A stretch of DNA of 64,000 nt, taken from assembly GCA_964488475.1 (NCBI GenBank), contig CAZAUK010000016.1, positions 73 to 64,072 of the forward strand. The letters are read 5' to 3'. The notes beneath the pieces were generated by a model, which saw nothing but the letters and a program-made list of their open reading frames with translations, made no database searches and was not told the origin of the DNA. The stretch is from an uncultured bacterium (GTDB taxonomy: Bacteria > Krumholzibacteriota > Krumholzibacteriia > Krumholzibacteriales > WJIX01). The position numbers were made by a program, and so were the translations under genes. Shown one piece after another: positions 12,068-33,030 of the stretch; the first letter of the stretch is position 1; every line of letters begins with the position of its first letter.

Positions 12068-13600
12068 TTATAGTCCCTTGGTGGTAATCTTGCCCGAAGA
12101 GGTCTTCGGCAGACTGTCCATTATGATTACCTGCTGGGGGACCATAAAATCTTCCAGGTGTTTTCTGGCGTGCGCCATGATTTTCTTTTCCGTCATGGAG
12201 GAAGATTTCTTCAGAACCACGAAGGCCTTTACCGCCTCTCCCAGAGTGGGGTCCGGCACACCCTTGACGGCGGCCTCTACCACGTCCGGATGAGCGTAGA
12301 GGGCTTTCTCCACCTCTTTCGGGCTTACCTTTTCCCCCCGGCTTTTGATTATATCATCTTTTCGGGATACAAAATACAGAAACCCTTCCTCATCCATTCT
12401 GAAAAGGTCGCCTGTGTAAAGCACTTTTTCCCAAGGGACTACTCCCGGTTTGAGCATTTTATCCGTCTCTGAGGGGAGTTCCCAGTAGCCTTTCATTACG
12501 TTTGAACCGCGAACCACCAGCTCGCCGGTCACTCCCGGTTCTATGATCCGCATTCCTTCTTCGTCTACCAGGAATACTTCCTCGTTCGGCATTCCCTTTC
12601 CCACAGATTCCGGCCTGCGGTCCAGCTCTTCCGGCGGAAGGTAGGAAACCCTTTTGCACTCGGTCAGACCGTACATTGAATATATCAGAGCGCCCGGAAA
12701 TATCTTCTGAAGGCCCCGAATGTGACTGACCGGAAGAGCCGCCGCGGTATTAGTGATATATCTGAGATGCTCAAAGTTTTCATCTTCGAGCTTCTTCAAC
12801 TGAAGTAGGATGGCGGAAATGGTGGGAACGATGGGGAATCCCGTTATCTTTTCCTCCTTCAGGGTATTAATTATTTCATAGGGATAGATAAAAGATTTCT
12901 TGAGGACCACCGTGCCTCCGAACTGAAAGGACATTATTATCTGATACAGGCCGTAATCGAAAGAGAGGGGAAGCACGTCCAGGATTATGTCGTCCTCTGT
13001 GTTTCCCAGATAGGTGGTTATGGATGTCGATGCGGAGACCATGTTCAGATGAGTCAGCATTACCCCTTTGGGATTTCCCGTGGTTCCTGAGGTGTATATC
13101 AGGGAGGCCAGGTCGATATCGATATTCCGGCGCTTCGGCGCTTGAGGGGGAGATCCACCCATAACCTCATCCCACTTTTTCATGGGAACGGGAAGGTCCG
13201 TTTTTATATCCTTTCCCACCGTGATGAGGGCTTTCAGATAATTCGATTCCGAGGCCGCCTTTAGAGCCGCTTCTCTTCTTCTGTAGTCGATGATGAGCGC
13301 AGTGGCCCGGCAGTTATTAAATATGTAGGCTAGCTTTTCACTTTTGGTGGTAGGGTTTATAACGACGAACACCGCGTCCGCCTTGAGGATTCCAAAAATG
13401 CTGATCACCGTCTCGGGAGAGTTGTCCAGAAGGATGGCCACCCGTTCTCCGCGATCCACTCCCAGCTCTGACAGTGAGTGGGCCAGACGGTCAGCGCTGC
13501 CATCCACTTCCCGGTAGGTGAGCCTGCGGTCACCGTCAATAAGGGCTGTTTTTCCGGCAAGCCTTGCCGCCGAATTCTCGAGAAATTCCTGAACCAGCAT
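12068..13600 (-). CDS. AMP-binding adenylation enzyme (acyl/aminoacyl-ACP ligase), similar to exosortase-locus ligases
   Basis: YTSGTTGNPKG, LSFDYG, YGLTE, YTGD...SRKDD and PKTSSGK motifs; start ATG 13600 (MLVQEFLE) behind GGGGAG. Confidence 0.88.
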   Translation of the reverse strand: MLVQEFLENSAARLAGKTALIDGDRRLTYREVDGSADRLAHSLSELGVDRGERVAILLDNSPETVISIFGILKADAVFVVINPTTKSEKLAYIFNNCRATALIIDYRRREAALKAASESNYLKALITVGKDIKTDLPVPMKKWDEVMGGSPPQAPKRRNIDIDLASLIYTSGTTGNPKGVMLTHLNMVSASTSITTYLGNTEDDIILDVLPLSFDYGLYQIIMSFQFGGTVVLKKSFIYPYEIINTLKEEKITGFPIVPTISAILLQLKKLEDENFEHLRYITNTAAALPVSHIRGLQKIFPGALIYSMYGLTECKRVSYLPPEELDRRPESVGKGMPNEEVFLVDEEGMRIIEPGVTGELVVRGSNVMKGYWELPSETDKMLKPGVVPWEKVLYTGDLFRMDEEGFLYFVSRKDDIIKSRGEKVSPKEVEKALYAHPDVVEAAVKGVPDPTLGEAVKAFVVLKKSSSMTEKKIMAHARKHLEDFMVPQQVIIMDSLPKTSSGKITTKGL

Positions 13601-13713
13601 CTTAATCCTTTTTGTCTCCCCTCGGCATTGCGGGTTCCGGCGGGTCCTCAAACCGCGGTTTTCCGCGCGCCGGCGGTCCATCAAATTACGGCATCCCGCA
13701 CGCCAGCGGCTCC

Positions 13714-13962
13714 TCAGCCCGATGCTTTCCTGTTTATGTATTCGGTCAGCTTGTTAACGGAATCGAAATTGTCGGGCACCAGTTCCTCGTCCGCCACTTC
13801 GAATTCGAACTCCTCCTCGATGTAAGAGACCAGCTCAAGGATCCCTGTTGAGTCTATTATTCCGTTTTCCATGAAGGAATCGTCGTCGGAGATCTTCTCG
13901 TCTTCCGAGTCGAGAAGGACGTTATCCTCCAGAAAAGCGTATATCTTCGCCTTTATTTCCAT
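13714..13962 (-). CDS. Acyl/aminoacyl carrier protein
   Basis: 82 aa, acidic; phosphopantetheine site GIIDSTGILELV; GGAGG RBS. Confidence 0.92.
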   Translation of the reverse strand: MEIKAKIYAFLEDNVLLDSEDEKISDDDSFMENGIIDSTGILELVSYIEEEFEFEVADEELVPDNFDSVNKLTEYINRKASG

Positions 13963-14053
13963 TCCGCCTCCTTAATATATCGACCCTTATTCTGAATGGT
14001 TTAGTATAGTATCAGCCGGCCGGTCAATCAATTCATTAGCGACTTTTTGAAAT

Positions 14054-14069
14054 TGCAAGAATCCTGCCA
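14054..14069 (-). promoter_or_regulatory. Sigma-54 promoter TGGCAGGATTCTTGCA driving the ACP operon
   Basis: Matches TGGCAC-N5-TTGCW with exact GG/GC spacing, about 90 nt upstream of the ACP start. Confidence 0.7.
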
Positions 14070-14137
14070 CGGTTCGTCTGGAAAGCCCGCCCGCTGTCCT
14101 TTTATGATCATTAATGCCGGAACAGGGGAATATCACC

Positions 14138-14437
14138 TCATAGTTTATCGATAACCGACTTCAACTTTCCCCCCATGGTAATATCTTTATCCTTTCTGTC
14201 GTCTATGATTATGGTTGTCAGGACCCTGCCCGCTCCCCGCTCAAAGGGCAAGCTGTGAAGTTCTGATATTACATCCATAATCTCCTTATACTCCCCTTCC
14301 AGGATAGTCGCCATGGGAGTAAGCTGGTATTTTATGTTTGTCTTGCTCTCCAGCACCTTTTGGCAACCGGCCACGTAGCTGCTTACGCTGGTGCTTCCCG
14401 TTCCGACCGGAACAACTGAAACAGATACTATCGCCAT
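14138..14437 (-). CDS. MTH1187/YkoF-family thiamine-binding protein
   Basis: VSVVPVGTGSTSVSSYV, YQLTPMATILEG and RVLTTIIIDDR motifs; start ATG 14437. Confidence 0.88.
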   Translation of the reverse strand: MAIVSVSVVPVGTGSTSVSSYVAGCQKVLESKTNIKYQLTPMATILEGEYKEIMDVISELHSLPFERGAGRVLTTIIIDDRKDKDITMGGKLKSVIDKL

Positions 14438-14634
14438 GTCTGTTTTCCTTTCCAAGCTTACTTCCGAAGCCCCTGTGGACTTGAGGCCAGAAATCAGTAT
14501 ATACGATTAACCGTGCTTCGGCCACCGGCTTTTTCACTGCCGGGGTGTCAAGGTTTGAGTGCTGATTCCCTTCAGGTTTGATAGTTTTGATTGACTCGGT
14601 CCTGTTATTACGTGAGAATATGGAAGCGATTTTT

Positions 14635-14650
14635 TGGATTGATATTTGCG
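14635..14650 (+). promoter_or_regulatory. Candidate sigma-54 promoter TGGATTGATATTTGCG
   Basis: GG and TTGC correctly spaced, about 50 nt before ATG 14703; the -24 box is degenerate. Confidence 0.45.
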
Positions 14651-14702
14651 TGAATTCACTCTGAAAGCGCCAGTGACTTAAGTTTTCCAGAGAGGCAGGA
14701 TC

Positions 14703-15569
14703 ATGAAACGCTGCGCGAGGTGTCTTCTTCCGGAGACGATACCCGGAATCAGTTTTGGCCATGAGGGGCTCTGCAGTTACTGCCGGAACTACCGTTCCAT
14801 CGAGTACCGGGGAGAGGAAGAGCTGGTCAGGCTGCTGGAAGAGGCCAGGAGCGGGAACCGTGAGTACGACTGCATTGTTCCTCTAAGCGGCGGCAGGGAC
14901 AGCAGTTATGTCTTGTATTTGGCGAAGAAAAGGTACGGGCTAAAAGTTCTGGCGGTAAACTATGATAATGAATTCAGGTCGAAGCAGGCCCTCGCGAACA
15001 TGAAGGCCGCCTGCTCGATCCTGGACGTCGACTTTGTTTCTCTCAGGTCAAAAAGAGGGATCGCCGGAAAGATAGTGGAGGCTTCGATCAGGAATTCATC
15101 CCGGGAGGGACTGAAATCGCTGGCCACCAGCTTCTGCGACGCCTGCGCATACGGGTATCAGGCGGTCGTCTATATCATGGCTGAAAAACATAAGGTTCCG
15201 CTGATCCTCTGGGGAAGCTCCGAAATGGAGTATACCGGGCACCTGACCGACGAGTTTTTCTCGGAGAGGAAATCGCCCTGGCGGAAGATACTTAACCAGA
15301 CCAGGGTCTTCCGGCTCAAGATCCTTAAGCTTCTACAGAGACTTGAATTCCCCGTTCCGGGCAATCTTTCTGTGGCGCTGCGGCTGGGCAGTCCCTGGCT
15401 TATGAATGATAAGATATCGGAGATCAGAGTATTTGATTATATCCCCTGGAAGCAGGATACCATAGTACGTACTATAAGGGAGGAACTGGGGTGGAGGAAA
15501 CCCGAGGATTCGGCTTCGACCTGGAGAACGGATTGTGAGCTGGAAAAATGGTCGAATACTGTTTTATGA
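14703..15569 (+). CDS. Second N-acetyl sugar amidotransferase-like protein, prematurely stopped at 15567-15569
   Basis: RCARCLLP...CSYC, LSGGRDS PP-loop, CDAC; paralogous to 9983..10978 but missing its C-terminus. Confidence 0.8.
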   Translation: MKRCARCLLPETIPGISFGHEGLCSYCRNYRSIEYRGEEELVRLLEEARSGNREYDCIVPLSGGRDSSYVLYLAKKRYGLKVLAVNYDNEFRSKQALANMKAACSILDVDFVSLRSKRGIAGKIVEASIRNSSREGLKSLATSFCDACAYGYQAVVYIMAEKHKVPLILWGSSEMEYTGHLTDEFFSERKSPWRKILNQTRVFRLKILKLLQRLEFPVPGNLSVALRLGSPWLMNDKISEIRVFDYIPWKQDTIVRTIREELGWRKPEDSASTWRTDCELEKWSNTVL

Positions 15570-15779
15570 ACCTGCTGGGCTGCAGCAAGAGATGCCTGGG
15601 GTTATCATAATATGATAAACGAAGGGCAGATGAGCACTGAGGAGGCAATAGAGCTGGAGGAGAGTATCAGCTCGCGTTTTACCGATGAGTTGAAAGAACT
15701 TCTTGAGATAATCGGATTGTCGGAAGAGGAGATCATAAGGATAGAATCTTTTCAGAACGGTCCGCCCTCCACCACTTGA
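15570..15779 (+). pseudogene. C-terminal continuation of the amidotransferase beyond the premature TGA
   Basis: The same frame continues as DAWGYHNMINEGQMSTEEAIELEE to TGA 15777-15779 and aligns without gaps to the paralogue's VREGYMERNEAIERLE. Confidence 0.7.
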
Positions 15780-15789
15780 TCTTAATATT

Positions 15790-17169
15790 ATGTCTAGCTC
15801 AAAATTATTCATAATTATAATGGCTTCCCTGATAGCGGTTGCCATAATCCTGATAGGACTTTTTTCCATACCTCTTGCCCTGATGGTGGCGGCCGGCGGT
15901 ATTACCGCTCTGGTGGTCTTTTTCGATCCATTCAAGGGCATGATCATATATGTAATCATCATTATCTTCAGACCGCAGGATTTTATCCCAGAGCTGGCGA
16001 ACGTCAGGGTTGCCCTGATAATGGCGATAATAATCCTGGCGTTTTTTCTGACCCACAAGGTATTGAAGAGGGAATCGATAAATTTTCTGGCCACCCGCCA
16101 GAACCTGCTGATGATATTGATGCTGATAATAGTACCGGTGAGTGTTCTGGTGAACAGCGGCCTGAAGCTGGCCTGGGAGCAGTTCAACGAATTTCTCACG
16201 ATTTTCTTCCTCTTTTTCATGGTGAGTAACGTTACCGAGAATTTTGAGAAAATGAAAAAGCTGATAACCGTGATTGTAATATGCGTCGCCATGATATCTC
16301 TTAACGGTCTGCTGCAGCACTTCAGGGGTTATGACGTAATCGGAAGAACTCCTCTTCTGGGACGTATCCGCTGGGTGGGTATATTCGGCGACCCCAACGA
16401 TCTGGCGCTATTGATAAACTCCTTTTTTCCACTGCTGCTTCTCTACTCCACCGGCAGGGGGGTGGGCCGGGGAGTCAGGTTTCTGTCGATACTGGCCGGG
16501 GCGGTCTTTCTACTGGCCGTCTATTATACCGATTCAAGGGGCGGGTTTCTGGCCCTGGCGGCGGTCCTGGTGCTCTTCGCTTATAAGAGGTGGGGTTTTC
16601 TGAGAGCTTTCCTGGTGGCCTCGGGAGCTTTCGTTGCTATATTCCTGGTGGGATTGGGGCGTATGACCAACCTCTCGCCCTATGAGGCGTCGGCCAGCGG
16701 AAGGGTGTTCGCCTGGATTCACGGGCTGGTCATGCTGAAGAACAACCCCGTTATAGGCATAGGATTTCAGGAGTTTTACGCAAACCACGGGCTTGCCGCC
16801 CACAGCGCGTTCATTGAATGCATGGCGGAACTGGGTCTGGTGGGTTATCTTGTCTGGATGACACTTCTCTATACCGCCGTTTCGGGCCTGATAAGATCGG
16901 AGAGGTATGAAACGGACCGGTCGGTCCACAGATACCTTGTTTTTCTTCAGCTGGCCTTCGCCGGGTTTATCGTAAGCTCTATCTTTCTCAACCAGGCCTA
17001 CAGCCCGGTACTATATATTATAGTGGCCCTTTCGTCGGTTATCGTCAAAGCCTCCCGGGCCGGCATAAAAATTCCGGTGATACCCGCTCCAAGGGAGATA
17101 GTCCACATCATAGCACTGATTACCGGGACCATCATACTTTACAAGCTGCTTGCTATCGTATACATATGA
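15790..17169 (+). CDS. O-antigen ligase / Wzy_C family membrane protein
   Basis: Multiple TM segments; GIFGDPNDLA, TDSRGGFL, GIG and AAHSAFIECMAELGLVG (Wzy_C His motif). Confidence 0.85.
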   Translation: MSSSKLFIIIMASLIAVAIILIGLFSIPLALMVAAGGITALVVFFDPFKGMIIYVIIIIFRPQDFIPELANVRVALIMAIIILAFFLTHKVLKRESINFLATRQNLLMILMLIIVPVSVLVNSGLKLAWEQFNEFLTIFFLFFMVSNVTENFEKMKKLITVIVICVAMISLNGLLQHFRGYDVIGRTPLLGRIRWVGIFGDPNDLALLINSFFPLLLLYSTGRGVGRGVRFLSILAGAVFLLAVYYTDSRGGFLALAAVLVLFAYKRWGFLRAFLVASGAFVAIFLVGLGRMTNLSPYEASASGRVFAWIHGLVMLKNNPVIGIGFQEFYANHGLAAHSAFIECMAELGLVGYLVWMTLLYTAVSGLIRSERYETDRSVHRYLVFLQLAFAGFIVSSIFLNQAYSPVLYIIVALSSVIVKASRAGIKIPVIPAPREIVHIIALITGTIILYKLLAIVYI

Positions 17170-17243
17170 TTGCGGGGTTCAATCACATTTATTACAAGAT
17201 ACGCACTAAACCGCGTTAACGATGCCGGGTGGAATAATATTCT

Positions 17244-17262
17244 CGGCTGAATCAACCAGCCG
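17244..17262. terminator. Short hairpin CGGCTG-N7-CAGCCG between convergent genes
   Basis: 6-bp stem just after the stop codon at 17268; no U-tract. Confidence 0.25.
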
Positions 17263-17267
17263 GAGGT

Positions 17268-18863
17268 TCAGTTGCCTTTAATCTTAACCAGTTCAGCGGG
17301 GGAAGGCAGATTGAGCGTCGGGGGTACGGGGGGAGCTCCCTCGGCGGTAGTTCCGAAGGCTCCCAGAGCGGGCGGATCGCTCCAGGTTCTGTTGTTATAA
17401 TCGAGCCCGTCGATGTATCTTTCATTGAAGTAGTCGTATATCTCGTTATTGAGAGCCGTTCCGCGGTCGGCGGCGGGACTGGTCTCGGTGAGCTGGAAAT
17501 GCAGGGGAAGGGACGGATTGGAGCTGACAAACTGGGGATCTCCAGTCAAGTCATTGTCATGCTGGGGGCACCCGTAATGATTAGCCAGAAGATCCCAGTC
17601 GGGTTCGGAGTCGGCGGGCTCCTGCATATTATGCCAGATGTTGTGCGAAAAGAGAAAGGTCTCGGGAAGAGTGGTGCTTGACTGAACCATGATAACCCAG
17701 TTTTCGTATCCCCAGGTGCCGTTGTAATATGAGATATTATTTACCACTTCCCCGTCACGGGGCCATACCAGATCGTATCCGCCTACCGAGGTCTGGAATG
17801 AATACATGTTAAACATGAAGGCAAGGCCGGTTGGCTCATCCGGATTGCTGTAGGCTACCGGACAGTAAAAGGTACAGTTGTATACTCCGCCTCCCCGCGA
17901 ACTGGCGAACTTTACGGGATTCTGTATGTTGACGAATACCGAGCGGTAGACCTTTATGTTCTTGGCCTCATAATCCATGGTCTCGCCGTCGCCGTCAAGC
18001 TCGTAGAGTGGAGGCCTGAAGAAAGCGCTTCCGGTGGCCTGGCCGATATTGACTCCGTTGTAACCGCAGGCCCTGAAGTAGCACCTGTCGATGGTTATCT
18101 TGCTGGAGCCTCCTTTGGCGACAAGCCCAGATCCACGCTCCCAGGCGAGATCAGCGTCAATGAACTTACAGTTTTGAATAGTACCGTAATGGCAGCCGAC
18201 CATGTCGAGCATGGGATCCTGAATATCGGTGAACACGCAGTCCTTGACCAGAAAGGTGTCCACGCCGGCCATCTTTAAGCCGTGATAGGGGATTCCCGAC
18301 CTGGAGAATTCACAACCTTCAATTATTATGTGATGAGCGGGGGTGCCCCTGGAGTCATGTGCATCGTCGGGGTGACCTCCATCGTCTATATTGACGCATT
18401 GCTGGCTGCTGTTGGTAAATACTATATCCTTGAGTTTTATAAAGGCGATATCGTCTTCCGGGTTATTGTTCGATGGTTCCGAATAGTCGGCAGTAAGCAA
18501 AAGGCAGACATTAGCCGATTTGTTGGCGTCGATTACCGGTTTGCTGGAAGCGTTAGGATCTCCCATAATTACCAGGTAATCATCCGGTCCGCCCCCGCGG
18601 ACCCTGAAATTGAAACCAACCACCCCCTGGCTGGGGTAGGTTCCCTCCATGACTATGACCGTGTCTCCGGTTCCTGGAGTAAGCACGTACTGGGCTATAT
18701 GCCTCAAGCTCTGATAGGGGTTGTCCGCGCTTCCGTTCCCGGAGGAATCGCTTCCGTCCGGCGCCATGTAGATCCTCGCCGCTGAGGGGCCTGCCAGCAC
18801 TATCAGCAGAGAAACAGAAATAATCGCGTGAATGTATAATATCTTTTTGGGGTTTAGGTCCAT
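17268..18863 (-). CDS. Secreted right-handed beta-helix (pectin lyase-like) protein
   Basis: Signal peptide; IYMAPDGSDSSGNGSADNPYQSL; GDTVIVMEGTY; repeated xIxxCxF parallel beta-helix rungs. Confidence 0.8.
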   Translation of the reverse strand: MDLNPKKILYIHAIISVSLLIVLAGPSAARIYMAPDGSDSSGNGSADNPYQSLRHIAQYVLTPGTGDTVIVMEGTYPSQGVVGFNFRVRGGGPDDYLVIMGDPNASSKPVIDANKSANVCLLLTADYSEPSNNNPEDDIAFIKLKDIVFTNSSQQCVNIDDGGHPDDAHDSRGTPAHHIIIEGCEFSRSGIPYHGLKMAGVDTFLVKDCVFTDIQDPMLDMVGCHYGTIQNCKFIDADLAWERGSGLVAKGGSSKITIDRCYFRACGYNGVNIGQATGSAFFRPPLYELDGDGETMDYEAKNIKVYRSVFVNIQNPVKFASSRGGGVYNCTFYCPVAYSNPDEPTGLAFMFNMYSFQTSVGGYDLVWPRDGEVVNNISYYNGTWGYENWVIMVQSSTTLPETFLFSHNIWHNMQEPADSEPDWDLLANHYGCPQHDNDLTGDPQFVSSNPSLPLHFQLTETSPAADRGTALNNEIYDYFNERYIDGLDYNNRTWSDPPALGAFGTTAEGAPPVPPTLNLPSPAELVKIKGN

Positions 18864-18911
18864 ACACTTCCTTCGGCATCGGTTATGGCATGACTGACCG
18901 GGTATAAATCT

Positions 18912-18927
18912 CGCAACTCTTGTGCCA
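18912..18927 (-). promoter_or_regulatory. Sigma-54 promoter TGGCACAAGAGTTGCG
   Basis: Consensus TGGCAC-N5-TTGC, about 50 nt upstream of ATG 18863. Confidence 0.75.
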
Positions 18928-18956
18928 TAACCGCCAAACCTTCGGCAACTTTTGAA

Positions 18957-18970
18957 TTTAGCCGGCTAAA
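18957..18970. repeat. Perfect palindrome TTTAGCCGGCTAAA upstream of the sigma-54 promoter
   Basis: 14-bp self-complementary sequence 30 nt upstream of the -24 box; possible regulator site. Confidence 0.3.
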
Positions 18971-19259
18971 ATAGAATAGAAACATCAAAACAAAAAGTCA
19001 ATAAATAGTTATAATCATAAATATCTCTTGCCTATGGCAGAGAATATTCGGCTGATGCCGCTACAATTCCATTCTTGGCAACACCTTAAGCCGGTAAATC
19101 TTTATCCGCCATACTACCGGTGGGCCTTCATCTCTTCAGGCCGTAAGATTTAGTCCATATCGTGTTGCAGTTATAAATATATAGTCTTGAAGCTGGATTT
19201 AAAAGTAATTATCCATGACTGAATCCCCCTATTTTGATATTCGATTGCATTATGGAGAT

Positions 19260-20351: not shown

Positions 20352-20368
20352 CTCAGTCTACTCCGGTT

Positions 20369-21472: not shown

Positions 21473-21522
21473 CGCCTTGAGCGCCCGATCAGAAAACAGC
21501 TTAGACCTCAGGCTATTGCATG

Positions 21523-21551
21523 TTGACAGAAAAATCCAATATTTTTATACT
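21523..21551 (+). promoter_or_regulatory. Sigma-70 promoter TTGACA-N17-TATACT
   Basis: Near-consensus -35/-10 with a 17-nt spacer, 58 nt before ATG 21609. Confidence 0.7.
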
Positions 21552-21608
21552 TTGTTTTTGCGCAACTGAGGAAGTTGTATCGCCAGTTATGAATAAAGGG
21601 GTTTTTTA

Positions 21609-22328: not shown

Positions 22329-22401
22329 GCGGCCCTGGATTTATAAGATCTTTCAGAGATAGATCGGCTAACCCGGCTTACTCCGCTCCAATTATGAGAA
22401 A

Positions 22402-23349: not shown

Positions 23350-23584
23350 TTCCTTAAGGATCTTAAGCGGTGAGATGCCGCAGGACCGATTTGCCGGCGC
23401 CGCAACAGGCAGAGTTCGGCGGCCGGGGCGTTTAAGCTCAGAATCCGGTTGACCTTTAAAGGTGATTATAATAGCCTGAGTATAGTTCGGCAAGATCCGG
23501 GGAAAGTAATTCTATATGAACGAGCCTGAATCGCGAGCTGATTGGTAATTGGCGAGGCAAATCTATACCCGAAAAGCAGTTAAC

Positions 23585-23600
23585 TGGCCCGAAAAATGCT
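23585..23600 (+). promoter_or_regulatory. Candidate sigma-54 promoter TGGCCCGAAAAATGCT
   Basis: GG/GC spacing exact; 25 nt before ATG 23625, with GGGAG RBS in between. Confidence 0.55.
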
Positions 23601-23624
23601 AGATATCTTGGTTGGGAGCAAGCT

Positions 23625-24737: not shown

Positions 24738-24822
24738 TTCTCAAAACCGTTCAAAGGCGCATAGTTGCCGGCAGAGGAGCTTTGCCGTCTACCTTGATGC
24801 CGCCGGAGAGCGGATGGATTCA

Positions 24823-25935
24823 TTATTCAAATGAATAGCCGTCCCCGCTGAAGTGGGAGAGTTGCCAGTCCTCCAGGCCGCTGTTTTCGGTATTCAGGTT
24901 CCAGGAGTCGGGGAAGGTGAAGGTAAATGACATACCCTTTCCTATATTTATCATACCCATTCTGCCTGCAGCCGAGCTGAGGCCGGGGTGTGAGGAGACG
25001 ATATCAAGCACCTCCGCGTCGCTTTTCATGAAAGAATCAAATACCTCTCTAACGAGCAGCTTAGGTGAGAGAGGATTCTGGCTGAAGAAACCATAGTCCA
25101 TCAGGCTCATCATCCTGAATCCTGAGTAGCCGCCCAAGGGCTGGGTGAGTACCCTGTTTTTCAGTATGAAATAGGCGGCGGGGCGGTTTTCCTTCTTGTC
25201 TTCCATTATGAAAAATTGACTGTTTCCCGCCCTGCTGAGTTTGAAGGCGAGCTTGGCCCCGCTGTCATTAAAGCGGAATCTCGAGCCATGATGGATATTC
25301 AGACCCTCCATGGTCGATTCCACTTCAGCCTTATCGATCCTGTGCCGGCTAAGATCCTTATTTCTCCCCGGCCCCAGGCTGGAAAGTATTGACACCAATG
25401 CTCTGGGAAAGGGTCTGAAAAGCGTATCGGCAAACTTTATCACCCCGCTGCAGTCTATGTACTTTCTCAGGAGAGGAGCACATGATCTGAGAAAAACAAA
25501 CCGATCGGCGTAACCCATGAATGAATATCCCAGTTTCCGGTAGATATGAACCGATACCGGCGTGGAAAAGACCATGCCGGATCCGATACCTTTTCCGTGA
25601 AGCACTCTCACCATGTTATCTATGAGTTTCGTTCCCAGTCCCTTGCCCCGGTATTCGGGGACCGTGAAGAATCCGCCCCCCCACGACCAGGGGTGTTTTC
25701 CCCGGTCGGTTATGAGAACGTCAGGTATCGCGAACCGGTTGCAGACCACCCTGTCCTCATGAGCGATATAGAAGAAGAAGGGAAATTCTTCATAGATGTC
25801 GGGATTTCCCCTGAAAGGCTCGAATTCAGTAAAGTCGCCGTCTTCAGTGACAAAGGAACGGTAAACCGCCGGATGGGTTTCAGCTGCCTTATCGATCTCG
25901 CCGAATGTTACAAAACCGAATTTGAAATCTTCCAT
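24823..25935 (-). CDS. GNAT-family N-acetyltransferase-like protein
   Basis: Acyl-CoA binding motif FTVPEYRGKGLGTKL; YRKLGY. Confidence 0.75.
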   Translation of the reverse strand: MEDFKFGFVTFGEIDKAAETHPAVYRSFVTEDGDFTEFEPFRGNPDIYEEFPFFFYIAHEDRVVCNRFAIPDVLITDRGKHPWSWGGGFFTVPEYRGKGLGTKLIDNMVRVLHGKGIGSGMVFSTPVSVHIYRKLGYSFMGYADRFVFLRSCAPLLRKYIDCSGVIKFADTLFRPFPRALVSILSSLGPGRNKDLSRHRIDKAEVESTMEGLNIHHGSRFRFNDSGAKLAFKLSRAGNSQFFIMEDKKENRPAAYFILKNRVLTQPLGGYSGFRMMSLMDYGFFSQNPLSPKLLVREVFDSFMKSDAEVLDIVSSHPGLSSAAGRMGMINIGKGMSFTFTFPDSWNLNTENSGLEDWQLSHFSGDGYSFE

Positions 25936-25953
25936 ATTTGATTCCCCGTACGT

Positions 25954-26592
25954 TCAGAGGTGATTTATTGCGTTAAAAAGATCGTAACCCTTATTCTTCA
26001 GGGGAGGAAGCACTATCTCGAGAACTTCCGGGATCTTGGGATTGTTATCATGGAGAAGGACGATGTCGCCGCCCTTTATGCGCTCGAGAAGCTTCCCGGC
26101 GATCTCTGCCGGCTCACTATCCCTGTTGAGGGTCCATTCGTGGCCTTCAGCGGACCAGAGCACGGTGGTAAGACCGCTGGAAAATGCCGCGGAAATAGAC
26201 GCGGGTCCGACCCAGCCCATCGGCGGGCGGTAGTACCTGGGCTTGTACCCGGTAATTTCCGTGATGATTTTTTGGCACATGCCGATATCTTCCCTGTGCC
26301 GTTTGAAGTTCCTGCGCTTCTCCTTAGAGTGATAAAAAGAATGGTTGCCGATGATATGGCCGTCTTCTGTTATCTTTTCGAGAAGGCGCGGATTTTTCCG
26401 TGCGAACCGGCCGACAATGAAAAATATCGCCCTGATCCGGTTAGCTTTTAAGATTTCCAGGATTCGGGGGGTGAATCTTTCGCTGGGCCCGTCGTCGAAG
26501 GTCAAGAGGAGTGAGGTCGAACCATTCGCTTCAAGCCTGCTGGCGAGGAGGCGGTTTGGCATGGCCGCTTTTATCGATTCCTTGAAGTTCAA
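25954..26592 (-). CDS. Polysaccharide deacetylase (NodB/CE4)
   Basis: LTFDDGP, GNHSFYH, YRPPMG, IVLLHD motifs. Confidence 0.9.
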   Translation of the reverse strand: MNFKESIKAAMPNRLLASRLEANGSTSLLLTFDDGPSERFTPRILEILKANRIRAIFFIVGRFARKNPRLLEKITEDGHIIGNHSFYHSKEKRRNFKRHREDIGMCQKIITEITGYKPRYYRPPMGWVGPASISAAFSSGLTTVLWSAEGHEWTLNRDSEPAEIAGKLLERIKGGDIVLLHDNNPKIPEVLEIVLPPLKNKGYDLFNAINHL

Positions 26593-26631
26593 GTCTATGA
26601 CCTCAGAGCAACCGGCCGGATATTAAAGGGA

Positions 26632-28317
26632 TCACAGCGAATCTTCCAGCTTTATATCCAGGCCGGGAGCATTAAAGTAATCGTCGAAATCGCCGCTCGT
26701 TATCAACCTGGTAAACAGATGAATATATACCAGCTGGAGCATGAATATATGATAGGTGACCGGATCTTCTTTCAGAGTGCTGATCTGGGCGGGAGTAAGC
26801 AGCTCCAGGGCGGTGTTCGAATCAAGGACCCGCATCAGAACATTCTTCTTGAACCGGAAAAGCCCCGCGGTGTCTGATACGATATCGCTCATTTCAATTT
26901 TATCGGCTTTTTCTCTACCCAGCATCTCCCTTACTTTTCTGTTGTGTAGTTCCTTGTGAAGATTCCTGTTCCTCAGAGCAAGAGCAGCGCTGATAGTCTG
27001 CCTGTTGACGAAGGGATATATTCCCTGAAGTCCGAAACTGTTAAGCAGGATGTCGTGCATCTTGAGAAGAAGATCGAAGGTGGAGTTGTACTTTACCCGG
27101 CGGGCGCTGCCCATAAATTGCCTGGTCAGGAGGTCGTAGGGTGTCTTCCGGCCGGTCAGGAGGCTGTAATATATCCGGCCCGGCAATCCCCTCTTGAGAT
27201 AGTTAATAAGCGCCGATCTGGTATTGTCTATTTTTCTGAAAAAGACGCTGTTCCTTTCCTGGGTTATTATCTCATTCGCTCCCGCTCCGAAAAGAGCTGT
27301 TTTCTTGCCGGTATTCCGCAGTAGATTGCAGATGCGGTACCGCAGGAATATTCCCCCTTCGAAAAGGTAGCTCTCGTAGCGCCAGACGATATCGGGCAGG
27401 TTGTCGATCGCTTCTTCGCTCATGTCGGCGGTGTGAAGCTCCACCCCGTCGTAATTTTTCAGAATGCTTTTTACCCTGGGAACCTCGTTGAATCCTTCCC
27501 CGCCGTTCACAGTGGCCGCGACCAGCGGCTTATCGGTGATTCTTTGCAGAAGATGCAGTATTAGATTCGAGTCGAATCCTCCCGAGAGAGACACGGCGGG
27601 AGGGGAATCGGTGAGGGTGGAATTGACCTCTGCCATGTTATTGCTGATATAATCTATCCAGTTTTCCTCAGCCTCGCCGGCGCTGATGCGCTGTCCCTCT
27701 GCTATAAAGGGAGGAGCGCTGACGGTGCGCTCCTTTCCGTTTATCAGGAGGTATCTTTGGGGGACCAGCTTTTCTACTCCCTTGATCAGCGTCGATTCAT
27801 CCGGAATAAGATACCTTCTAAAGAGGAACCGGTGGGCGGCCGATACGTCAATATTCCTGGAGACTTTTGATTTTTTAAGAAGCAGTTTGAGGCTGGTGCT
27901 GAAAGTTATCCCTTCGCCGGTGGTGGCGTAATATACCGGAAGGAAAGAGCCGTGCTCGGGCTGCAGAACAAGACATCTGCGCTCGCTGGAGTCATATATG
28001 ACGATAACGTAGTGGCCTTCCAGCTCGTTCAGCAGTTTCAGGCCGGACGAACGGTAGAGCGCTTCAACGATTTCGGTGTCGGTGGAATTGTCCATAGATA
28101 TTCGTTTGGCGATTTCACCGATATTCGAAAGGTATCCCAGAACAGAACAGAGGATACCCGATTCACTATTATAGAACAGGGAGGAACGGTCATATCTTGA
28201 GTAACTCATCCTGGCAGCTTCGAAATCGAATCCAGCGTCTCGAAAACGGCTTTCCAGCGTGAGGCTCTTGTTATCCTCCCGGAGCTTCCAGTCAAATTTT
28301 CCAAGCAGGTAGTTCAT
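26632..28317 (-). CDS. Asparagine synthetase-like protein lacking the N-terminal catalytic Cys
   Basis: AsnB-like layout (LNELEGHY, PVYY, FSTSLK, TLIKGVEKL), PP-loop LSGGFDS, GAGANE; begins MNYLL, not MC. Confidence 0.7.
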   Translation of the reverse strand: MNYLLGKFDWKLREDNKSLTLESRFRDAGFDFEAARMSYSRYDRSSLFYNSESGILCSVLGYLSNIGEIAKRISMDNSTDTEIVEALYRSSGLKLLNELEGHYVIVIYDSSERRCLVLQPEHGSFLPVYYATTGEGITFSTSLKLLLKKSKVSRNIDVSAAHRFLFRRYLIPDESTLIKGVEKLVPQRYLLINGKERTVSAPPFIAEGQRISAGEAEENWIDYISNNMAEVNSTLTDSPPAVSLSGGFDSNLILHLLQRITDKPLVAATVNGGEGFNEVPRVKSILKNYDGVELHTADMSEEAIDNLPDIVWRYESYLFEGGIFLRYRICNLLRNTGKKTALFGAGANEIITQERNSVFFRKIDNTRSALINYLKRGLPGRIYYSLLTGRKTPYDLLTRQFMGSARRVKYNSTFDLLLKMHDILLNSFGLQGIYPFVNRQTISAALALRNRNLHKELHNRKVREMLGREKADKIEMSDIVSDTAGLFRFKKNVLMRVLDSNTALELLTPAQISTLKEDPVTYHIFMLQLVYIHLFTRLITSGDFDDYFNAPGLDIKLEDSL

Positions 28318-28445
28318 CTCGAATCCTCCAGTTCCGGTCCTCGCTGCCGGTTCGGCTATTCAAGGTTTTTAATTATGAAAGGGCTGTAAGCAGGTTACGA
28401 CGAGCCTTCCCTTCCTATTGCCCGAAGCGGGCCGAGCCGAGCCCG

Positions 28446-29093
28446 TTAACCGCCTCTGCCGGTGAAGAAGTCCTCTGCGGCTTTGATTTCTTCTTCTTCA
28501 AAGACTTTTATGACGCTGGCGGGATTTCCTCCCACCACGCAATTGGCGGGGACGTCCCTGGTTACCACCGCTCCAGCCGCGATGACGGAATTACGGCCTA
28601 TGGTAACTCCTTTTAATATTATGGTGGCCAGCCCCGCCCAGACATTATCCTTGATGACCACCGGACTTGAATCCACGGGGGCTTCCGGGTCCCAACGGTC
28701 GGGAGCCACTCCGTGCTGATCGCTGTCTGTTATTCTGGTGTCCGCGAAGATGCACCATTTTCCGATCTCCACCCTCTCGCTGCAGCTCACTCTCAGGCCG
28801 TTCAGGTAGCTGTTGGTCCCCACAAGTATCTTGGCCCGCCTGGAGTAGGTGTATAGAGAGTTGATCTTGAACGGTCCTCCCTCTATCAGAATATTGTCTC
28901 CGAGCATGACTTCCCCGGGGCCTCGCACTCGAAGCCTTTGTCTTACCCTCAGATTACTACCGCAGGTAAAGCGTCTTCCGCTGAGAGCCATCACCGACAT
29001 GTAGCGCAGCGCGTTAAAACGCGAAAGAAGGTAATTAAATCCCTTTGAGGGGTTCCTGATGCCCTTATGAATTCTGGTTCCAAGCGAGTTCAT
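28446..29093 (-). CDS. Hexapeptide-repeat O-acyltransferase
   Basis: [39 protein letters not shown]. Confidence 0.88.
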
Positions 29094-29204
29094 TCGAAAA
29101 CACTTTCGAAGCCCATTTCCGGGGACGGCGGTTGACCAGGTTTGCTTCTCCGCCGAATCTATAAATAATACACCAGATTACCCGTATGACGGCGCTGAAG
29201 TCAA

Positions 29205-30491
29205 TTATTTAAAAAAGAGGTGAAAAAACCTGGAAAAGATCACCATTATTTCATCCACCCTGAGAGCAAATAGAAGAATTCCCAGCGCGAAAAAGTTGAA
29301 CGTCCCGATGACCCCGACCGCCTGGCTGTAACTGGACCTGAAATAGCGCCTGATACTCCTGTTTTTGATCTTTCGTTTCTGTTTTCGGTATATGTTCAGA
29401 ACAGCCAGCCCCAGTCCCTGGTATAATCCCCAGAGCACGAAGTTGAAAGTATCGCCGTGCCACATCCCACATATGATGAAGGTCACGATTATGCTGACGT
29501 TCGAGAGGGTGATGGGTCTTTTTTTGAAGTACCGGTAGTTTCTGAGTTTCCTGGACAGCGGCCAGAAGATGTAATCGGTAAGCCAGGTGGTAAGGGACAT
29601 GTGCCAGTTGGCCCATAGTTGCTGGATGTTTCTTTTCATGAAAGGGTTGTTGAAGTTTTCGGGAAGTTCTATGCCCATTATTCGGGCGGACCCGATGGCC
29701 AGGTCGGAATAACCGGCGAAATCAAAATAAAAGTAGAGGGTATAGGCATACAGGCCGATCAGGACCTGGAAAGAGCTCATACTCGATATCGAACCGGATA
29801 TATTGGTTATAGCGTATGGAAAGACCAGAGTCGACAGAACGAATTTCTTGAACAGGCCGTGTACTATCCTTTCCAGCCCGGGTTTCAGGTCGGCTGAGAG
29901 GTCCTTCTCCTTGAACTCCATCTGAGCGCTGAAATGGTTGTAGCGGTTTATCGGCCCGCTGATGAAGGAAGGGAAGAAGAAGATGAAATTGAAAAAGTAC
30001 AGGATATTGATCTTTTCTATCTGCCGCTTGTAGCACTCGATCACGAAGTGCATCAGTTTGAATGAAGAATAGGAGATTCCGATTATGAATATGAAGTCGA
30101 TAGCCTCAAAATCCCTGCCCAGAAGGTCCTCAAAAAAGATTTCCTGCAGAAAATTGTATTTGAAGAAGGCCAGAATCAGAATCAGTGAACCGATTGAGCC
30201 GGAAGCGATAAGGAGTTTTCGTGACCCGGGTTTCTCAACAGAGGTTCTGTTCAGGTAGTAACCCATGAAATAAACGATGATGGTTATAACCAGCAGGAAG
30301 AGGAAAGAGAGTGGGGAAAACCTGGGAAGTGCCAGCAGAAAGAGGATGTTGAAAACGGCTATTGAAACATCCCTGATCCAGCGGCGAACCATCAGCAGCC
30401 TGAATATCACAACGGCCGCCAGGAAGAATATCCAGAACTTAATGTCGTAGTAGAAGTTGAATTTCAGTAATATAGTGTTAAAATAATCCAT
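29205..30491 (-). CDS. MBOAT O-acyltransferase (DltB/AlgI-like)
   Basis: GISYSSFK, FFPSFISGPI, YFDFAGYSDLAIG, ENFNNPF, WHMSLTTWL and the catalytic GMWHG. Confidence 0.92.
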   Translation of the reverse strand: MDYFNTILLKFNFYYDIKFWIFFLAAVVIFRLLMVRRWIRDVSIAVFNILFLLALPRFSPLSFLFLLVITIIVYFMGYYLNRTSVEKPGSRKLLIASGSIGSLILILAFFKYNFLQEIFFEDLLGRDFEAIDFIFIIGISYSSFKLMHFVIECYKRQIEKINILYFFNFIFFFPSFISGPINRYNHFSAQMEFKEKDLSADLKPGLERIVHGLFKKFVLSTLVFPYAITNISGSISSMSSFQVLIGLYAYTLYFYFDFAGYSDLAIGSARIMGIELPENFNNPFMKRNIQQLWANWHMSLTTWLTDYIFWPLSRKLRNYRYFKKRPITLSNVSIIVTFIICGMWHGDTFNFVLWGLYQGLGLAVLNIYRKQKRKIKNRSIRRYFRSSYSQAVGVIGTFNFFALGILLFALRVDEIMVIFSRFFHLFFK

Positions 30492-31584
30492 GCTTAAGGA
30501 ATACTTCCTCTATCAGATACTCTCCTACTAACCTGTTGGCGAATTCGTTGTAATGGGGATCCCGCTCGAAGCATAGCTTCTCCCCGAGGTCGTAATGTTT
30601 TTTAAGGACGGGCCTGGGATTGAGCAGCAGCTTGCCGTTTTTCCGAGCGTAGTCTATCATGAATTCCTCGTACAACGAGGGGTGATAACGGGAGGGGTCT
30701 GCCCCCAAATCGCCCAGGACACTCTTCAGCCTGAAACTGTCCACCAGTGGGACGAAAAGGTAGGCTGTCTTTATTCCCTTTCCCGCGCAGTACTCTTCGA
30801 ATTTATTGAGGTATCCCTCGGCTTCCCCAGCCTCGTCCAGGTTGTACAGCCGGCTCTCTTCGGAGTAAAGTTCGAAATGTTTGGGAAGCCTCTCGGATAT
30901 TTCGATCAGGTTCAATCTGGCGTTAAGTTTCCAGAAGACATCCCTGAGAAAATCATATATGGACAGGGTGTTCTTTATGATGAGCCTGATATAGGCTTTT
31001 TTCCATGAGCTTTTGTAAAACAGGTATCCGCTCTTGACCATGACCGGTTCAAGCGTGGAGTGAGTGGTGTCGTACCAGTTCAGGGAGGAAGAGCTGAGGC
31101 CGAGTATAACCAGTTCCGGTTTTCGCCGCTCGTCTTCGATGAATTCCCTGAGGATGGTCTCCTGCTCCATCAGAAAATGCCCCCCCACCGCGAAATTCAG
31201 AACCTCGATCCCCTTTCCGGCAGCGTAATCCGAAAATATTCCTACAAAGGATTCATCGAAATCGACTCCCTGCCCGAAAACCTGGGAAGCGCCCAGGAAA
31301 ACTATGTAAGGTTTTTTATTTATGTCGACATCGCCGGTCTCACTGTCCCTGGCGCCGATGGAATTGGTTATGGTTGTATAGGAATAGGTGGACCAGTCAT
31401 TGACCTTGACCAGGTTTTTCTTGAAGCGGTAGAAATCTCTGTATTGAACATATTCACCCCGGTATGTGTTGGAAGCGCTCCTTCCCGAAATTCTGAGACC
31501 GATTTCGAGGATGACCAGGCATAGAATCAAGGTGGCCGCCAGAACCGCTGCCTTTTCAAATATTATCTTTAAATTTATTTTCAA
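30478..31584 (-). CDS. Membrane-anchored SGNH-type acyl transfer protein (AlgJ/DltD-like)
   Basis: One N-terminal TM helix; block I FLGAS, NFAVGG, C-terminal DPHYN; overlaps the MBOAT start. Confidence 0.75.
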   Translation of the reverse strand: MKINLKIIFEKAAVLAATLILCLVILEIGLRISGRSASNTYRGEYVQYRDFYRFKKNLVKVNDWSTYSYTTITNSIGARDSETGDVDINKKPYIVFLGASQVFGQGVDFDESFVGIFSDYAAGKGIEVLNFAVGGHFLMEQETILREFIEDERRKPELVILGLSSSSLNWYDTTHSTLEPVMVKSGYLFYKSSWKKAYIRLIIKNTLSIYDFLRDVFWKLNARLNLIEISERLPKHFELYSEESRLYNLDEAGEAEGYLNKFEEYCAGKGIKTAYLFVPLVDSFRLKSVLGDLGADPSRYHPSLYEEFMIDYARKNGKLLLNPRPVLKKHYDLGEKLCFERDPHYNEFANRLVGEYLIEEVFLKHGLF

Positions 31585-31628
31585 AACAGCCCTCTTGGGT
31601 AAGCTCGAGGTTGACCACAGCCCCCCCG

Positions 31629-31775
31629 TTAGAAGTTAACATAGATAAATTCAGGTATTTCCGTTGTTCCGCTGGTATACCTGTGCATAAGGAAAATGAC
31701 GATCCAGAATATCTCAAACGCGATAATGATCAGCTTTCGGTTCCGCGCTACGATATCTTTGATTTTAACGAGCAT
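31629..31775 (-). CDS. 48-aa DltX-like single-TM peptide with a C-terminal FIYxxF motif (not in the ORF track)
   Basis: Translated by hand: MLVKIKDIVARNRKLIIIAFEIFWIVIFLMHRYTSGTTEIPEFIYVNF*; RBS GGAGAGGGAG; first gene before the SGNH and MBOAT genes. Confidence 0.8.
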   Translation of the reverse strand: MLVKIKDIVARNRKLIIIAFEIFWIVIFLMHRYTSGTTEIPEFIYVNF

Positions 31776-31869
31776 TTTTCACGCTCCCTCTCCTTTGTTC
31801 TTCATGCCCGCAAATTCCGGTCCAATTTTGTGTTCGGTTCAAATGAAAACTTTTTTGGTTGAGGCGCCC

Positions 31870-31885
31870 CGCAAATCATAGACCA
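31870..31885 (-). promoter_or_regulatory. Candidate sigma-54 promoter TGGTCTATGATTTGCG for the DltX-like/SGNH/MBOAT operon
   Basis: GG and TTGC at exact spacing, about 95 nt upstream of ATG 31775. Confidence 0.55.
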
Positions 31886-33015: not shown

Positions 33016-33030
33016 ATCCCCGTCCGTTTT

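Follow-up and report, generated by a model that had tools for sequence, protein, structure and literature searches.

The question raised by the 64,000-nucleotide stretch analysed here (assembly GCA_964488475.1, contig CAZAUK010000016.1, positions 73 to 64,072 of the forward strand; hereafter the window) is whether two blocks of genes in one glycan locus of an uncultured bacterium work together as a single acylation system of the Dlt type. The Dlt mechanism, in which a group is passed from a carrier protein to a membrane-bound O-acyltransferase (MBOAT), the tyrosine of a microprotein, the serine of an SGNH protein, and then a polymer, was elucidated only recently. The original prediction, which was made from the letters of the window by a model, described analogues of DltA, DltC, DltX, DltD/AlgJ, and DltB as one such pathway, and all five open reading frames (ORFs) that it named were found, on the minus strand, with lengths given in amino acids (aa):

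12068..13600, minus strand: adenylating ligase of the ANL superfamily, 510 aa when counted from the ATG at 13600 (AMP-binding and AMP-binding_C, E=1e-92)
13714..13962, minus strand: acidic acyl carrier protein (ACP), 82 aa (PF00550, PP-binding, E=1e-6)
29205..30491, minus strand: DltB-type MBOAT, 428 aa (PF03062, E=5e-27)
30478..31584, minus strand: membrane-anchored SGNH-fold protein, 368 aa (AlphaFold2 model and Foldseek)
31629..31775, minus strand: DltX-like membrane microprotein, 48 aa (translation; ribosome-binding site AAGGAG upstream)

We consider it probable that these genes serve a carrier-protein-dependent, Dlt-type acylation of a surface glycan made by a Wzx/Wzy pathway. The evidence comes from the proteins themselves and from the gene neighbourhoods of their relatives.

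The MBOAT, the microprotein, and the SGNH protein

The sole NCBIfam match of the MBOAT was the DltB model TIGR04091, and since its score of 242.7 bits is below the equivalog cutoff of 375, the protein appears to be DltB-like rather than a DltB orthologue. Its sole sequence matches in the PDB were also DltB (6BUG and 8JEM, E=6e-41), in agreement with the DltB analogue that had been proposed, and His297 and His345 align to His289 and His336 of DltB. The C-terminus (...FHLFFK) has no fused FxYxxF motif. In acyl-CoA-dependent MBOATs such as PatA, the FXYXXF acyl-shuttle motif is fused to the enzyme, whereas in Dlt it resides on a separate microprotein and is tied to a carrier-protein-dependent pathway; Dlt has been presented as the sole MBOAT pathway with a carrier protein and a microprotein (PMC12148441). 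Regarding the contact with the carrier protein, the DltB interface residues Met302, Val305, Ile306, and Met309 (PMC11035591) align to Trp, Ser, Arg, and Arg in the window MBOAT. In the window ACP, Leu is retained at S+4 and Glu at S+5. This pattern is common among ACPs and was, therefore, judged uninformative for a DltB-DltC interface.

The 48-aa microprotein has a basic N-terminus, one transmembrane segment, and the C-terminal sequence F43-I-Y45-V-N-F48, in which Tyr45 is the predicted acyl acceptor, and it corresponds well to the DltX analogue of the original prediction. It had no Pfam match and only five database relatives, all of which are unnamed. A motif microprotein of the same class, mostly ending in F[IV]YV[NH]F, was found near an MBOAT in 26 loci from Aminicenantes, Acidobacteriota, Verrucomicrobiota, Planctomycetota, Spirochaetia, and unclassified metagenome-assembled genomes (MAGs), and this recurrence in several phyla argues that the 48-aa ORF is a real gene.

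The gene for the 368-aa SGNH protein overlaps the start of the MBOAT gene by 14 nucleotides (nt) at its 3' end. In the AlphaFold2 model (predicted local distance difference test score, 90.7), an N-terminal transmembrane helix (residues 5-32) precedes a catalytic domain that matches SGNH/GDSL hydrolases with a Foldseek probability of 1.0. The protein had 38 homologues, all unnamed, and Ser100 (in GAS), Gly135, Asp342, and His344 were invariant in 32 homologues. It is predicted to be a periplasmic acyltransferase with Ser100, Asp342, and His344 as the catalytic candidates, and the same family adjoins Acidobacteria-type MBOATs in tblastn searches. The SGNH fold of the DltD/AlgJ-type protein that had been proposed was thus borne out. 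Its membership in DltD or AlgJ was not: the protein matched no Pfam model, an hhalign comparison with a PF04914 DltD gave a probability of 3%, and the top 50 Foldseek matches held no DltD, PatB, or AlgJ/AlgX structure. The matches obtained were generic SGNH esterases, such as TesA, acetyl-xylan esterases, and CgnD, and this partner would accordingly represent a family matching no Pfam model.

The carrier protein and its ligase

A scan with an ACP hidden Markov model identified a single ACP in the whole window, with the phosphopantetheine site at Ser38 in IDSTG (DSTG motif). The PP-binding domain agrees with the DltC analogue that had been suggested; the DltC models themselves scored below their cutoffs (NF003464, 28.2 against 68; TIGR01688, 20.1 against 52), and the protein is, as far as these models indicate, a generic PP-binding ACP.

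The ligase, the ORF of which extends to a TTG at 13684, was not retained as a DltA analogue. Its best NCBIfam model was TIGR03098 (481.6 bits against a cutoff of 592.35), the DltA models were outside the 25 best of 108 NCBIfam matches, and its pocket reads FDY / NTA / ECKRV against FDL / FCG / EATTM in the canonical-type DltA of locus L008. Full-length matches in the PDB were adenylation domains of nonribosomal peptide synthetases (NRPSs) and VinN, and for residues 195-345, VinN was the sole PDB match at E<=1e-8, ungapped. D215, Y216, T285, K316, and R317 of the ligase align to D230, F231, S299, K330, and R331 of VinN, which binds 3-methylaspartate through D230 (amino group), F231, S299, and K330 with R331 (alpha-carboxylate) (PMC11253843). 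The features of a VinN-type pocket that we tested, namely, the Asp, the adjacent bulky residue, and the Lys-Arg of the shortened beta13-beta14 loop, were all present in the ligase, and the pattern FDY / NT[AG] / ECKRV is retained in approximately 69 of 84 aligned ligases. Since these five pocket residues align to those of VinN, the predicted substrate has an amino group and a distal carboxylate, and the ligase may load an aspartate-like amino-dicarboxylate on the ACP through the side-chain carboxyl. Neither a pyridoxal phosphate (PLP) decarboxylase or polyketide synthase (PKS) gene nor an exosortase/PEP-CTERM gene was present among the annotated ORFs of the window. More than 7,900 members of the ligase family are named merely 'AMP-binding' or 'long-chain acyl-CoA synthetase'.

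Gene neighbourhoods of the two blocks

Scans of 185,579 species genomes returned at least 95 MBOAT loci in 90 assemblies and at least 80 ligase loci, most of them in MAGs; the 80 ligase loci are the closest among the matches listed (55-70% identity), and a neighbourhood was defined as 10 kb. The two blocks are united in L110, in which seven genes, ACP-ligase (58% identity)-NadE-WbuX1-SGNH-MBOAT-DltX, follow each other with stops and starts overlapping at five of the six junctions. In L006, they stand on one strand in a different order, namely, hexapeptide transferase-SGNH-methyltransferase-MBOAT-DltX-SnoaL-NadE-ACP-ligase (54% identity); in L106 and L107, ACP-NadE adjoins MBOAT-DltX, and in L002, a ligase ends 4 nt before the MBOAT. 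This linkage, which is kept across different gene orders, argues for functional coupling.

The association was also apparent in the counts. An ACP was present within 10 kb in 18 of the 26 loci with the motif class of the window microprotein, whereas none of the 31 MBOATs with a fused motif had one (Fisher's test for all microproteins against fused motifs, p=1e-5), nor did any of 16 loci with a second class of microprotein. In a rough neighbour-joining tree, the clade of the window MBOAT (the window, L022-24, and L105) was sister to L110 and then to L006, L106, and L107; L008, a canonical dltC-D-X-B-A operon with a PF04914 DltD, was placed at the base, the 31 fused-motif MBOATs formed separate clades, and the MBOATs with second-class microproteins were also placed elsewhere.

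The second class consists of single-transmembrane microproteins that end in motifs such as DF[IV]Y..F or VLYQAF and are encoded beside MBOATs with no ACP nearby (L111, L112, L114, L116, L119, L127, L131, L140, L149, L156, L158, L159, L165, L167, L171, and L172). These 16 loci suggest that split MBOAT/microprotein systems are not limited to Dlt, contrary to the view in the literature (PMC12148441).

The other block has a life of its own. In the 80 closest ligase loci, which include one complete 4.1-Mb chromosome, the ACP is directly upstream of the ligase in 78 and a NadE-like gene is downstream in 67, and a 656-aa AsnB-like amidotransferase, which resembles the XrtA/PEP-CTERM amidotransferase, is upstream of the ACP in 57. 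The dependency between the blocks is, thus, asymmetric: the MBOAT clade of the window tends to travel with a loader, and the ACP-ligase-NadE cassette needs no MBOAT.

Different loaders were observed beside related triads of MBOAT, DltX-like, and SGNH genes. In L009, L011, L012, L014-L019, and L157 (e.g., L016:9863-14136), which belong to Acidobacteriota, Verrucomicrobiota, and Planctomycetota, MBOAT-DltX-like-SGNH-ACP is followed by a 397-403-aa protein similar to seryl-tRNA synthetase (SerRS) and by a GNAT protein; the SerRS-like protein shows homology to Bll0957, an amino acid:[carrier protein] ligase (E=1e-27). Since such ligases follow a related MBOAT-DltX-SGNH-ACP array, the triad appears to be fed by different loaders. 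An NRPS module with condensation, adenylation, thiolation, and thioesterase domains was found beside ACP-NadE-MBOAT-DltX in a Solibacteraceae MAG (L106:3906-6917) and is possibly another type of loader for the same triad.

Tailoring genes and the surrounding glycan locus

The glycan locus spans approximately 28 kb (7.7-35.5 kb) and is predominantly on the minus strand. Besides a polysaccharide deacetylase and two hexapeptide transferases, it holds Wzx, Wzy, and five glycosyltransferases; Wzx and Wzy mark a Wzx/Wzy-dependent glycan locus, which is the presumed source of the acceptor. The genes that bear on the modification are as follows:

8447..9940, minus strand: Wzx-type flippase, with which the glycan genes of the ACP operon end (PF01943/PF13440)
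9983..10978, minus strand: WbuX-like PP-loop amidotransferase 1, 331 aa, encoded next in the ACP operon (TIGR03573, 159 against a cutoff of 203)
11041..12006, minus strand: NadE-like PP-loop amidating enzyme, 321 aa (PF02540, E=5e-55)
15790-17169, plus strand: Wzy (PF04932)
24823-25935, minus strand: GNAT-domain protein downstream of the MBOAT (Pfam)
25954-26592, minus strand: polysaccharide deacetylase downstream of the MBOAT (Pfam)
26632-28317, minus strand: AsnB-like amidotransferase downstream of the MBOAT (Pfam)
28446-29093, minus strand: hexapeptide acyltransferase downstream of the MBOAT (Pfam)

The NadE-like, AsnB-like, two WbuX-like amidotransferase, and GNAT genes, to which a possible tailoring role had been assigned, are all present, and the NadE-like gene, as a conserved partner of the ACP and ligase, is in keeping with tailoring of the carrier-bound unit. 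Its fixed position after these two genes in 67 of the 80 loci argues for a cassette-specific role, and the enzyme is predicted to amidate a free carboxylate of the carrier-bound unit. The protein has the PP-loop SGGLDS (SGGxDS), scores 392 bits against a cutoff of 313 in NF002048, and aligns to NH3-dependent NAD synthetases in the PDB in two blocks, with an insertion of approximately 65 aa relative to them. NadE-like genes also lie within 10 kb of the MBOAT in L001-3, L006, L106-108, and L110, and WbuX-like 1 follows the NadE-like gene in 14 of the 80 loci and in the L110 operon. Downstream of the MBOAT, the four co-directional genes between 24823 and 29093 keep the same order in the relative L187; L022 has a hexapeptide transferase and an AsnB-like gene near its triad, and L006 has a hexapeptide transferase there.

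In the cassette island of Occallatibacter, the match to NF002048 (PRK00876), which is named 'NAD(+) synthase', reaches 497 bits. Members of this family may be amidating enzymes specific to the cassette, in which case NAD synthetase would be a misnomer.

A second small GDSL-like lipase/acylhydrolase of 242 aa (7722-8450, minus strand) overlaps the stop of Wzx by 4 nt and is kept in the relatives L188 and L022; it could be another glycan-acylating or deacylating enzyme.

A proposed relay

From the genes, motifs, fold, pocket residues, and neighbourhood statistics described above, we infer the following transfer steps, together with the substrate, its amidation, and the acceptor. The VinN-like ligase would adenylate the side-chain carboxyl of an amino-dicarboxylic acid, with aspartate or a close analogue as the most likely substrate, and thioesterify the unit to the phosphopantetheine on Ser38 of the ACP. 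The NadE-like enzyme, possibly together with the WbuX-like or AsnB-like enzymes, would then amidate the free alpha-carboxylate, so that the unit becomes isoasparaginyl-like and carries a net positive charge, an idea that is based on the analogy to D-isoasparagine formation in lactococcal peptidoglycan and on the fixed position of the NadE-like gene. The MBOAT would take the unit from the ACP at the cytoplasmic face and pass it, by way of His345 and His297, to Tyr45 of the microprotein at the periplasmic face, from which Ser100 of the SGNH protein would accept it and esterify a hydroxyl of the flipped glycan. Both blocks would be driven by sigma-54-type promoters. The full chemical proposal, with an aspartate-like unit and its amidation, is put forward tentatively and is held with far less confidence than the Dlt-type acylation itself.

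A broader interpretation, which we regard as doubtful in its entirety, is that the locus belongs to a widespread and so far undescribed family of carrier-protein-dependent MBOAT/DltX-like/SGNH systems in diderm phyla (Latescibacterota/Krumholzibacteriota, Aminicenantes, Acidobacteriota, Verrucomicrobiota, and Planctomycetota), which would esterify surface glycans with amino-acid-derived groups. Interchangeable loaders would feed these systems, whether ANL ligases (VinN-like or other), an NRPS module, or amino acid:[carrier protein] ligases of the SerRS-like kind. The donor in the present locus would be isoasparaginyl, a beta-linked aspartate alpha-amide assembled on the ACP by the ligase and the NadE-like enzyme, and the NF002048 subfamily would, on this view, not consist of NAD synthetases.

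Alternative explanations

A number of observations weigh against a single pathway or against parts of the relay. The two blocks of the window lie 15 kb apart and have separate promoters. The ACP-ligase-NadE cassette is an autonomous and far more widespread unit: none of the 80 closest ligase loci had an MBOAT, SGNH, or DltX homologue within 10 kb, and no assembly was common to these 80 cassette loci and the 90 MBOAT assemblies among the matches listed, from which it follows that the product of the cassette must usually have another destination. The order CHU-PorP-ACP-ligase-NadE-WbuX1-Wzx in the nearest relatives, L027, L030, L032, L037, L040, and L095, is that of the window without the 18-kb segment that contains the MBOAT block; the cassette forms a small island with no glycan genes in Occallatibacter, and another cassette-only island, L087, reads hexapeptide transferase-AsnB-ACP-ligase-NadE-methyltransferase. 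Neither an ACP nor a ligase was present within 10 kb in the four loci with the closest triads (L022-24 and L105); L022 stops at Wzy, and the ACP of the window sits just past Wzy. In L001-3 and L108, the ligase is of a different subtype with no equivalent of Asp235, and no ACP was detectable. The Aminicenantes loci L001-3, with the subtype YIY/QAG/EASRL, were, therefore, set aside as proof of the linkage and support only a link between an MBOAT, an ANL ligase, and a NadE-like gene. The split architecture as proof of carrier-protein use is likewise weakened by the 16 second-class loci without a nearby ACP. Moreover, hhalign gave no sequence relation of the SGNH protein to DltD, the NadE-like protein scores above the NCBI cutoff for NAD+ synthase and so falls within the NAD+ synthetases by sequence, the substrate call rests on five aligned residues, and the tree is a quick and rough one made from stop-to-stop ORFs in which a few sequences were misplaced.

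The blocks could instead be two unrelated modules, a possibility that we consider rather unlikely. The triad would then O-acylate the glycan from a soluble acyl-CoA, such as acetyl-CoA, in the manner of AlgI/AlgJ or PatA/PatB, and the acyl or aminoacyl group made by the cassette would be placed on an amino sugar in the cytoplasm by a soluble hexapeptide left-handed beta-helix enzyme or a GNAT, as LpxA and LpxD do with acyl-ACP; the window encodes one GNAT and two hexapeptide transferases that could serve this role. The distance between the blocks, the cassettes that are free of an MBOAT in all 80 loci and in islands such as L087, the closest triads that lack an ACP and a ligase nearby, and the 16 microprotein-type MBOATs without an ACP all speak for it. 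On the other hand, all seven genes are joined in one overlapping operon in L110 and are adjacent in other orders in L006, L106, and L107, and the window MBOAT is bracketed in the tree by ACP-linked MBOATs and a canonical dlt operon. Acyl-CoA-type MBOATs as described carry a fused motif (PMC12148441), and the 31 loci with such a motif are in separate clades; the only relatives of known function of the window MBOAT are DltB. Independent occurrence of the MBOAT block and the ACP/ligase block across genomes, which the original prediction had named, together with an AlgI-like use of acetyl-CoA, as the observation that would contradict it, was seen by half, in the autonomy of the cassette and in the four closest triad loci. 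The claim of one Dlt-like pathway is partly supported, in that its parts and the logic of Dlt stood up.

A relay that is of the Dlt type and ACP-dependent, but has a different donor or acceptor, appears to us quite improbable. An aspartyl that is not amidated or is N-acetylated, a 3-methylaspartyl, or a different dicarboxylate could be the donor, since the pocket residues only point to an amino group and a distal carboxylate, and a GNAT gene follows the loader in Acidobacteria-type cassettes and is also present in the window cluster; the NadE-like enzyme might have a uronic acid of the glycan as its substrate or might be a genuine NAD synthetase, although it tracks the ligase and ACP in 67 of the 80 loci and does so even in islands without glycan genes. 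The acceptor could be another envelope molecule, such as lipopolysaccharide (in its core or its lipid A), a lipoglycan, or a protein, as there are loci, for instance L006 and L110, in which the triad lies apart from comparable glycan genes; however, it lies within Wzx/Wzy loci in the window, L022-24, L105, and L187. We retain the carrier-protein-dependent acylation of the Wzx/Wzy-made glycan as the probable function of the locus.

Comparison with known systems

The Dlt system of Firmicutes, which attaches D-alanine to teichoic acids, shares with the window a DltB-like MBOAT with both His residues, a separate FxYxxF microprotein, an anchored SGNH protein with Ser, Asp, and His, and an ACP and a ligase in the locus. 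It differs in that the ligase of the window is not DltA, its ACP is below the DltC cutoffs, its SGNH protein is not PF04914, its microprotein has no Pfam match, and the NadE-like and WbuX-like proteins are extra conserved partners. The two blocks are, furthermore, 15 kb apart in a diderm host and in a Wzx/Wzy glycan locus, and the acceptor is, for these last two reasons, presumably not teichoic acid. Among diderm systems, PatA/PatB, AlgI/AlgJ/AlgF/AlgX, and WssH/WssI also combine an MBOAT with a periplasmic SGNH protein, and an acyl-Tyr followed by an acyl-Ser is expected there (PMC12148441); in contrast to the window, MBOATs of the PatA/AlgI type carry the motif on two extra C-terminal transmembrane helices, use acetyl-CoA, and have no carrier protein.

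Regarding the loader, VinN/VinL and their counterparts FlvN, IdnL1, and CmiS6, which function in macrolactam polyketide loading, are similar in the pairing of a stand-alone ANL enzyme with an ACP and in the pocket residues. Unlike these systems, the window has no VinO-type PLP decarboxylase, second protecting adenylation enzyme, or PKS; a NadE-like gene follows instead, in a glycan context. TIGR03098, the exosortase A system-associated acyl-CoA ligase, was the best-scoring model, and the AsnB-like partner in 57 of the 80 cassette loci is a further likeness; the window ligase is nevertheless below the cutoff of 592, and the annotated ORFs of the window included neither an exosortase nor a PEP-CTERM gene. 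The usual partner of the TIGR03098 family is a PLP decarboxylase. Bll0957-type ligases also load an amino acid on a stand-alone carrier and have homologues in related loci, whereas none is present in the window, in which the loader belongs to the ANL superfamily.

Small amino acids are added to envelope polymers through carrier proteins in other Gram-negative bacteria. In Vibrio cholerae, AlmEFG places glycine on lipid A, with AlmG as an LpxL-type transferase at the cytoplasmic face and no MBOAT, and the dra operon of Bordetella and the dlt operons of Dickeya and Pectobacterium are canonical DltABCD systems. As is proposed for the window, the addition changes the charge of the polymer. In Lactococcus lactis, AslA and AsnH produce a D-Asp cross-bridge that is amidated to D-isoasparagine, with AsnH acting on peptidoglycan precursors; a beta-linked Asp with an amidated alpha-carboxylate is, thus, a known envelope modification. 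To our knowledge, none of these systems combines a VinN-like loader with a NadE-like enzyme, and a search of the available literature returned no account of a DltB/DltX-type system that is encoded in a glycan locus and has a VinN-like loader together with a NadE-like partner and a non-DltD SGNH protein.

Putative promoter elements, host, and neighbouring genes

A close relative of the locus, on a contig of 23,971 bp, encodes proteins with 70-79% identity and has all the genes from DltX to SpoU in unchanged order; it was used to assess the two putative promoter elements:

14054..14069, minus strand: sigma-54-type -24/-12 element TGGCAGGATTCTTGCA, approximately 92 nt upstream of the ACP start codon (one mismatch to TGGCACN5TTGCW)
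31809..31824, minus strand: degenerate sigma-54-like element TGGACCGGAATTTGCG (GG-N10-GC), 5' end approximately 49 nt upstream of the DltX start (three mismatches)

The 16-mer TGGCAGGATTCTTGCA is identical in L188, although the surrounding spacer shows little conservation, having many mismatches as well as two long gaps; of 77 cassette loci that are more distant, 76 lack the conserved element. On the DltX side, TTGGACCGGAA[A/T]TTGC is equidistant from the DltX start in the window and in L187, with diverged flanks, and this element would be weak evidence on its own. Across the window, three sites with up to one mismatch were found against 1.0 expected, a weak excess that 9 of 100 shuffles also reached, and with up to two mismatches there was no enrichment (10 sites against 19 expected). 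The sigma-54 motif that had been placed before each block was, thus, recovered with one mismatch before the ACP block, and before the DltX block only as three-mismatch GG-N10-GC sites. The conserved footprints, which come from a single relative, nonetheless support putative sigma-54-type promoters for both blocks.

Of the other two sites with one mismatch, TGGCACAAGAGTTGCG (18912-18927, minus strand) lies approximately 50 nt upstream of the gene for a beta-helix protein (17268-18863), and the one at 34185-34200 lies upstream of a pair of CHU_C and PorP genes. The element GCTTGATTAATA (31940-31955, minus strand), approximately 170 nt upstream of DltX, is conserved in L187 within a diverged spacer and is a candidate activator or IHF-type site that could serve the putative sigma-54 promoter. 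No gene for a sigma-54 enhancer-binding protein was identified among the annotated ORFs of the window; L105 ends in a gene that was read by eye as encoding such a protein. A 105-aa ORF (14138-14455, minus strand) lies just upstream of the ACP operon's putative promoter, and the gene at its position in L188 encodes a PF01910 (Thiamine_BP/YkoF-like) protein; an overlapping 158-aa ORF (14286-14762) had no Pfam match and is probably spurious.

The glycan locus is flanked by housekeeping genes, with LigD-type non-homologous end joining (NHEJ) genes, nitroreductases, and a SpoU methylase upstream and serine hydroxymethyltransferase, arginyl-tRNA synthetase, and polyprenyl synthetase downstream. The arginyl-tRNA synthetase is 63-74% identical to those of Latescibacterota and Krumholzibacteriota MAGs, and the window also encodes an outer membrane beta-barrel protein and PorP/SprF- and CHU_C-like proteins. 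On these grounds, the host is an uncultured diderm of the Fibrobacteres-Chlorobi-Bacteroidetes group that is Latescibacterota/Krumholzibacteriota-like. A CHU_C/FlgD-Ig/fn3 protein and a PorP/SprF-like protein are encoded as a pair of the type IX secretion system type (32074-33960, minus strand) upstream of the DltX block, and such a pair directly precedes the ACP in L027, L030, L032, L037, L040, and L095. The LigD functions are encoded as three separate genes for a phosphoesterase, an ATP-dependent ligase, and a primase-polymerase (1946-4738, plus strand), which represent an NHEJ module unrelated to the acylation system.

Significance

The locus and its relatives indicate that the logic of Dlt is used in diderm environmental phyla with other loaders, an SGNH family outside Pfam, and glycan contexts. 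If this is true, the chemistry of surface-glycan modification would be widened to amino-acid esters other than D-Ala, testable substrates would become available for a large and poorly annotated family of ligases, and the annotation of the cassette partner as an NAD synthase would be called into question. Should the isoasparaginyl reading also be true, the product would be a cationic ester that is functionally analogous to D-alanylation. The biological function that amino acid:[carrier protein] ligases serve was stated to be unknown in a review from 2022 (PMC9437257), and the Acidobacteria-type loci would, on the same premise, suggest that these ligases feed a Dlt-like aminoacylation of the envelope.

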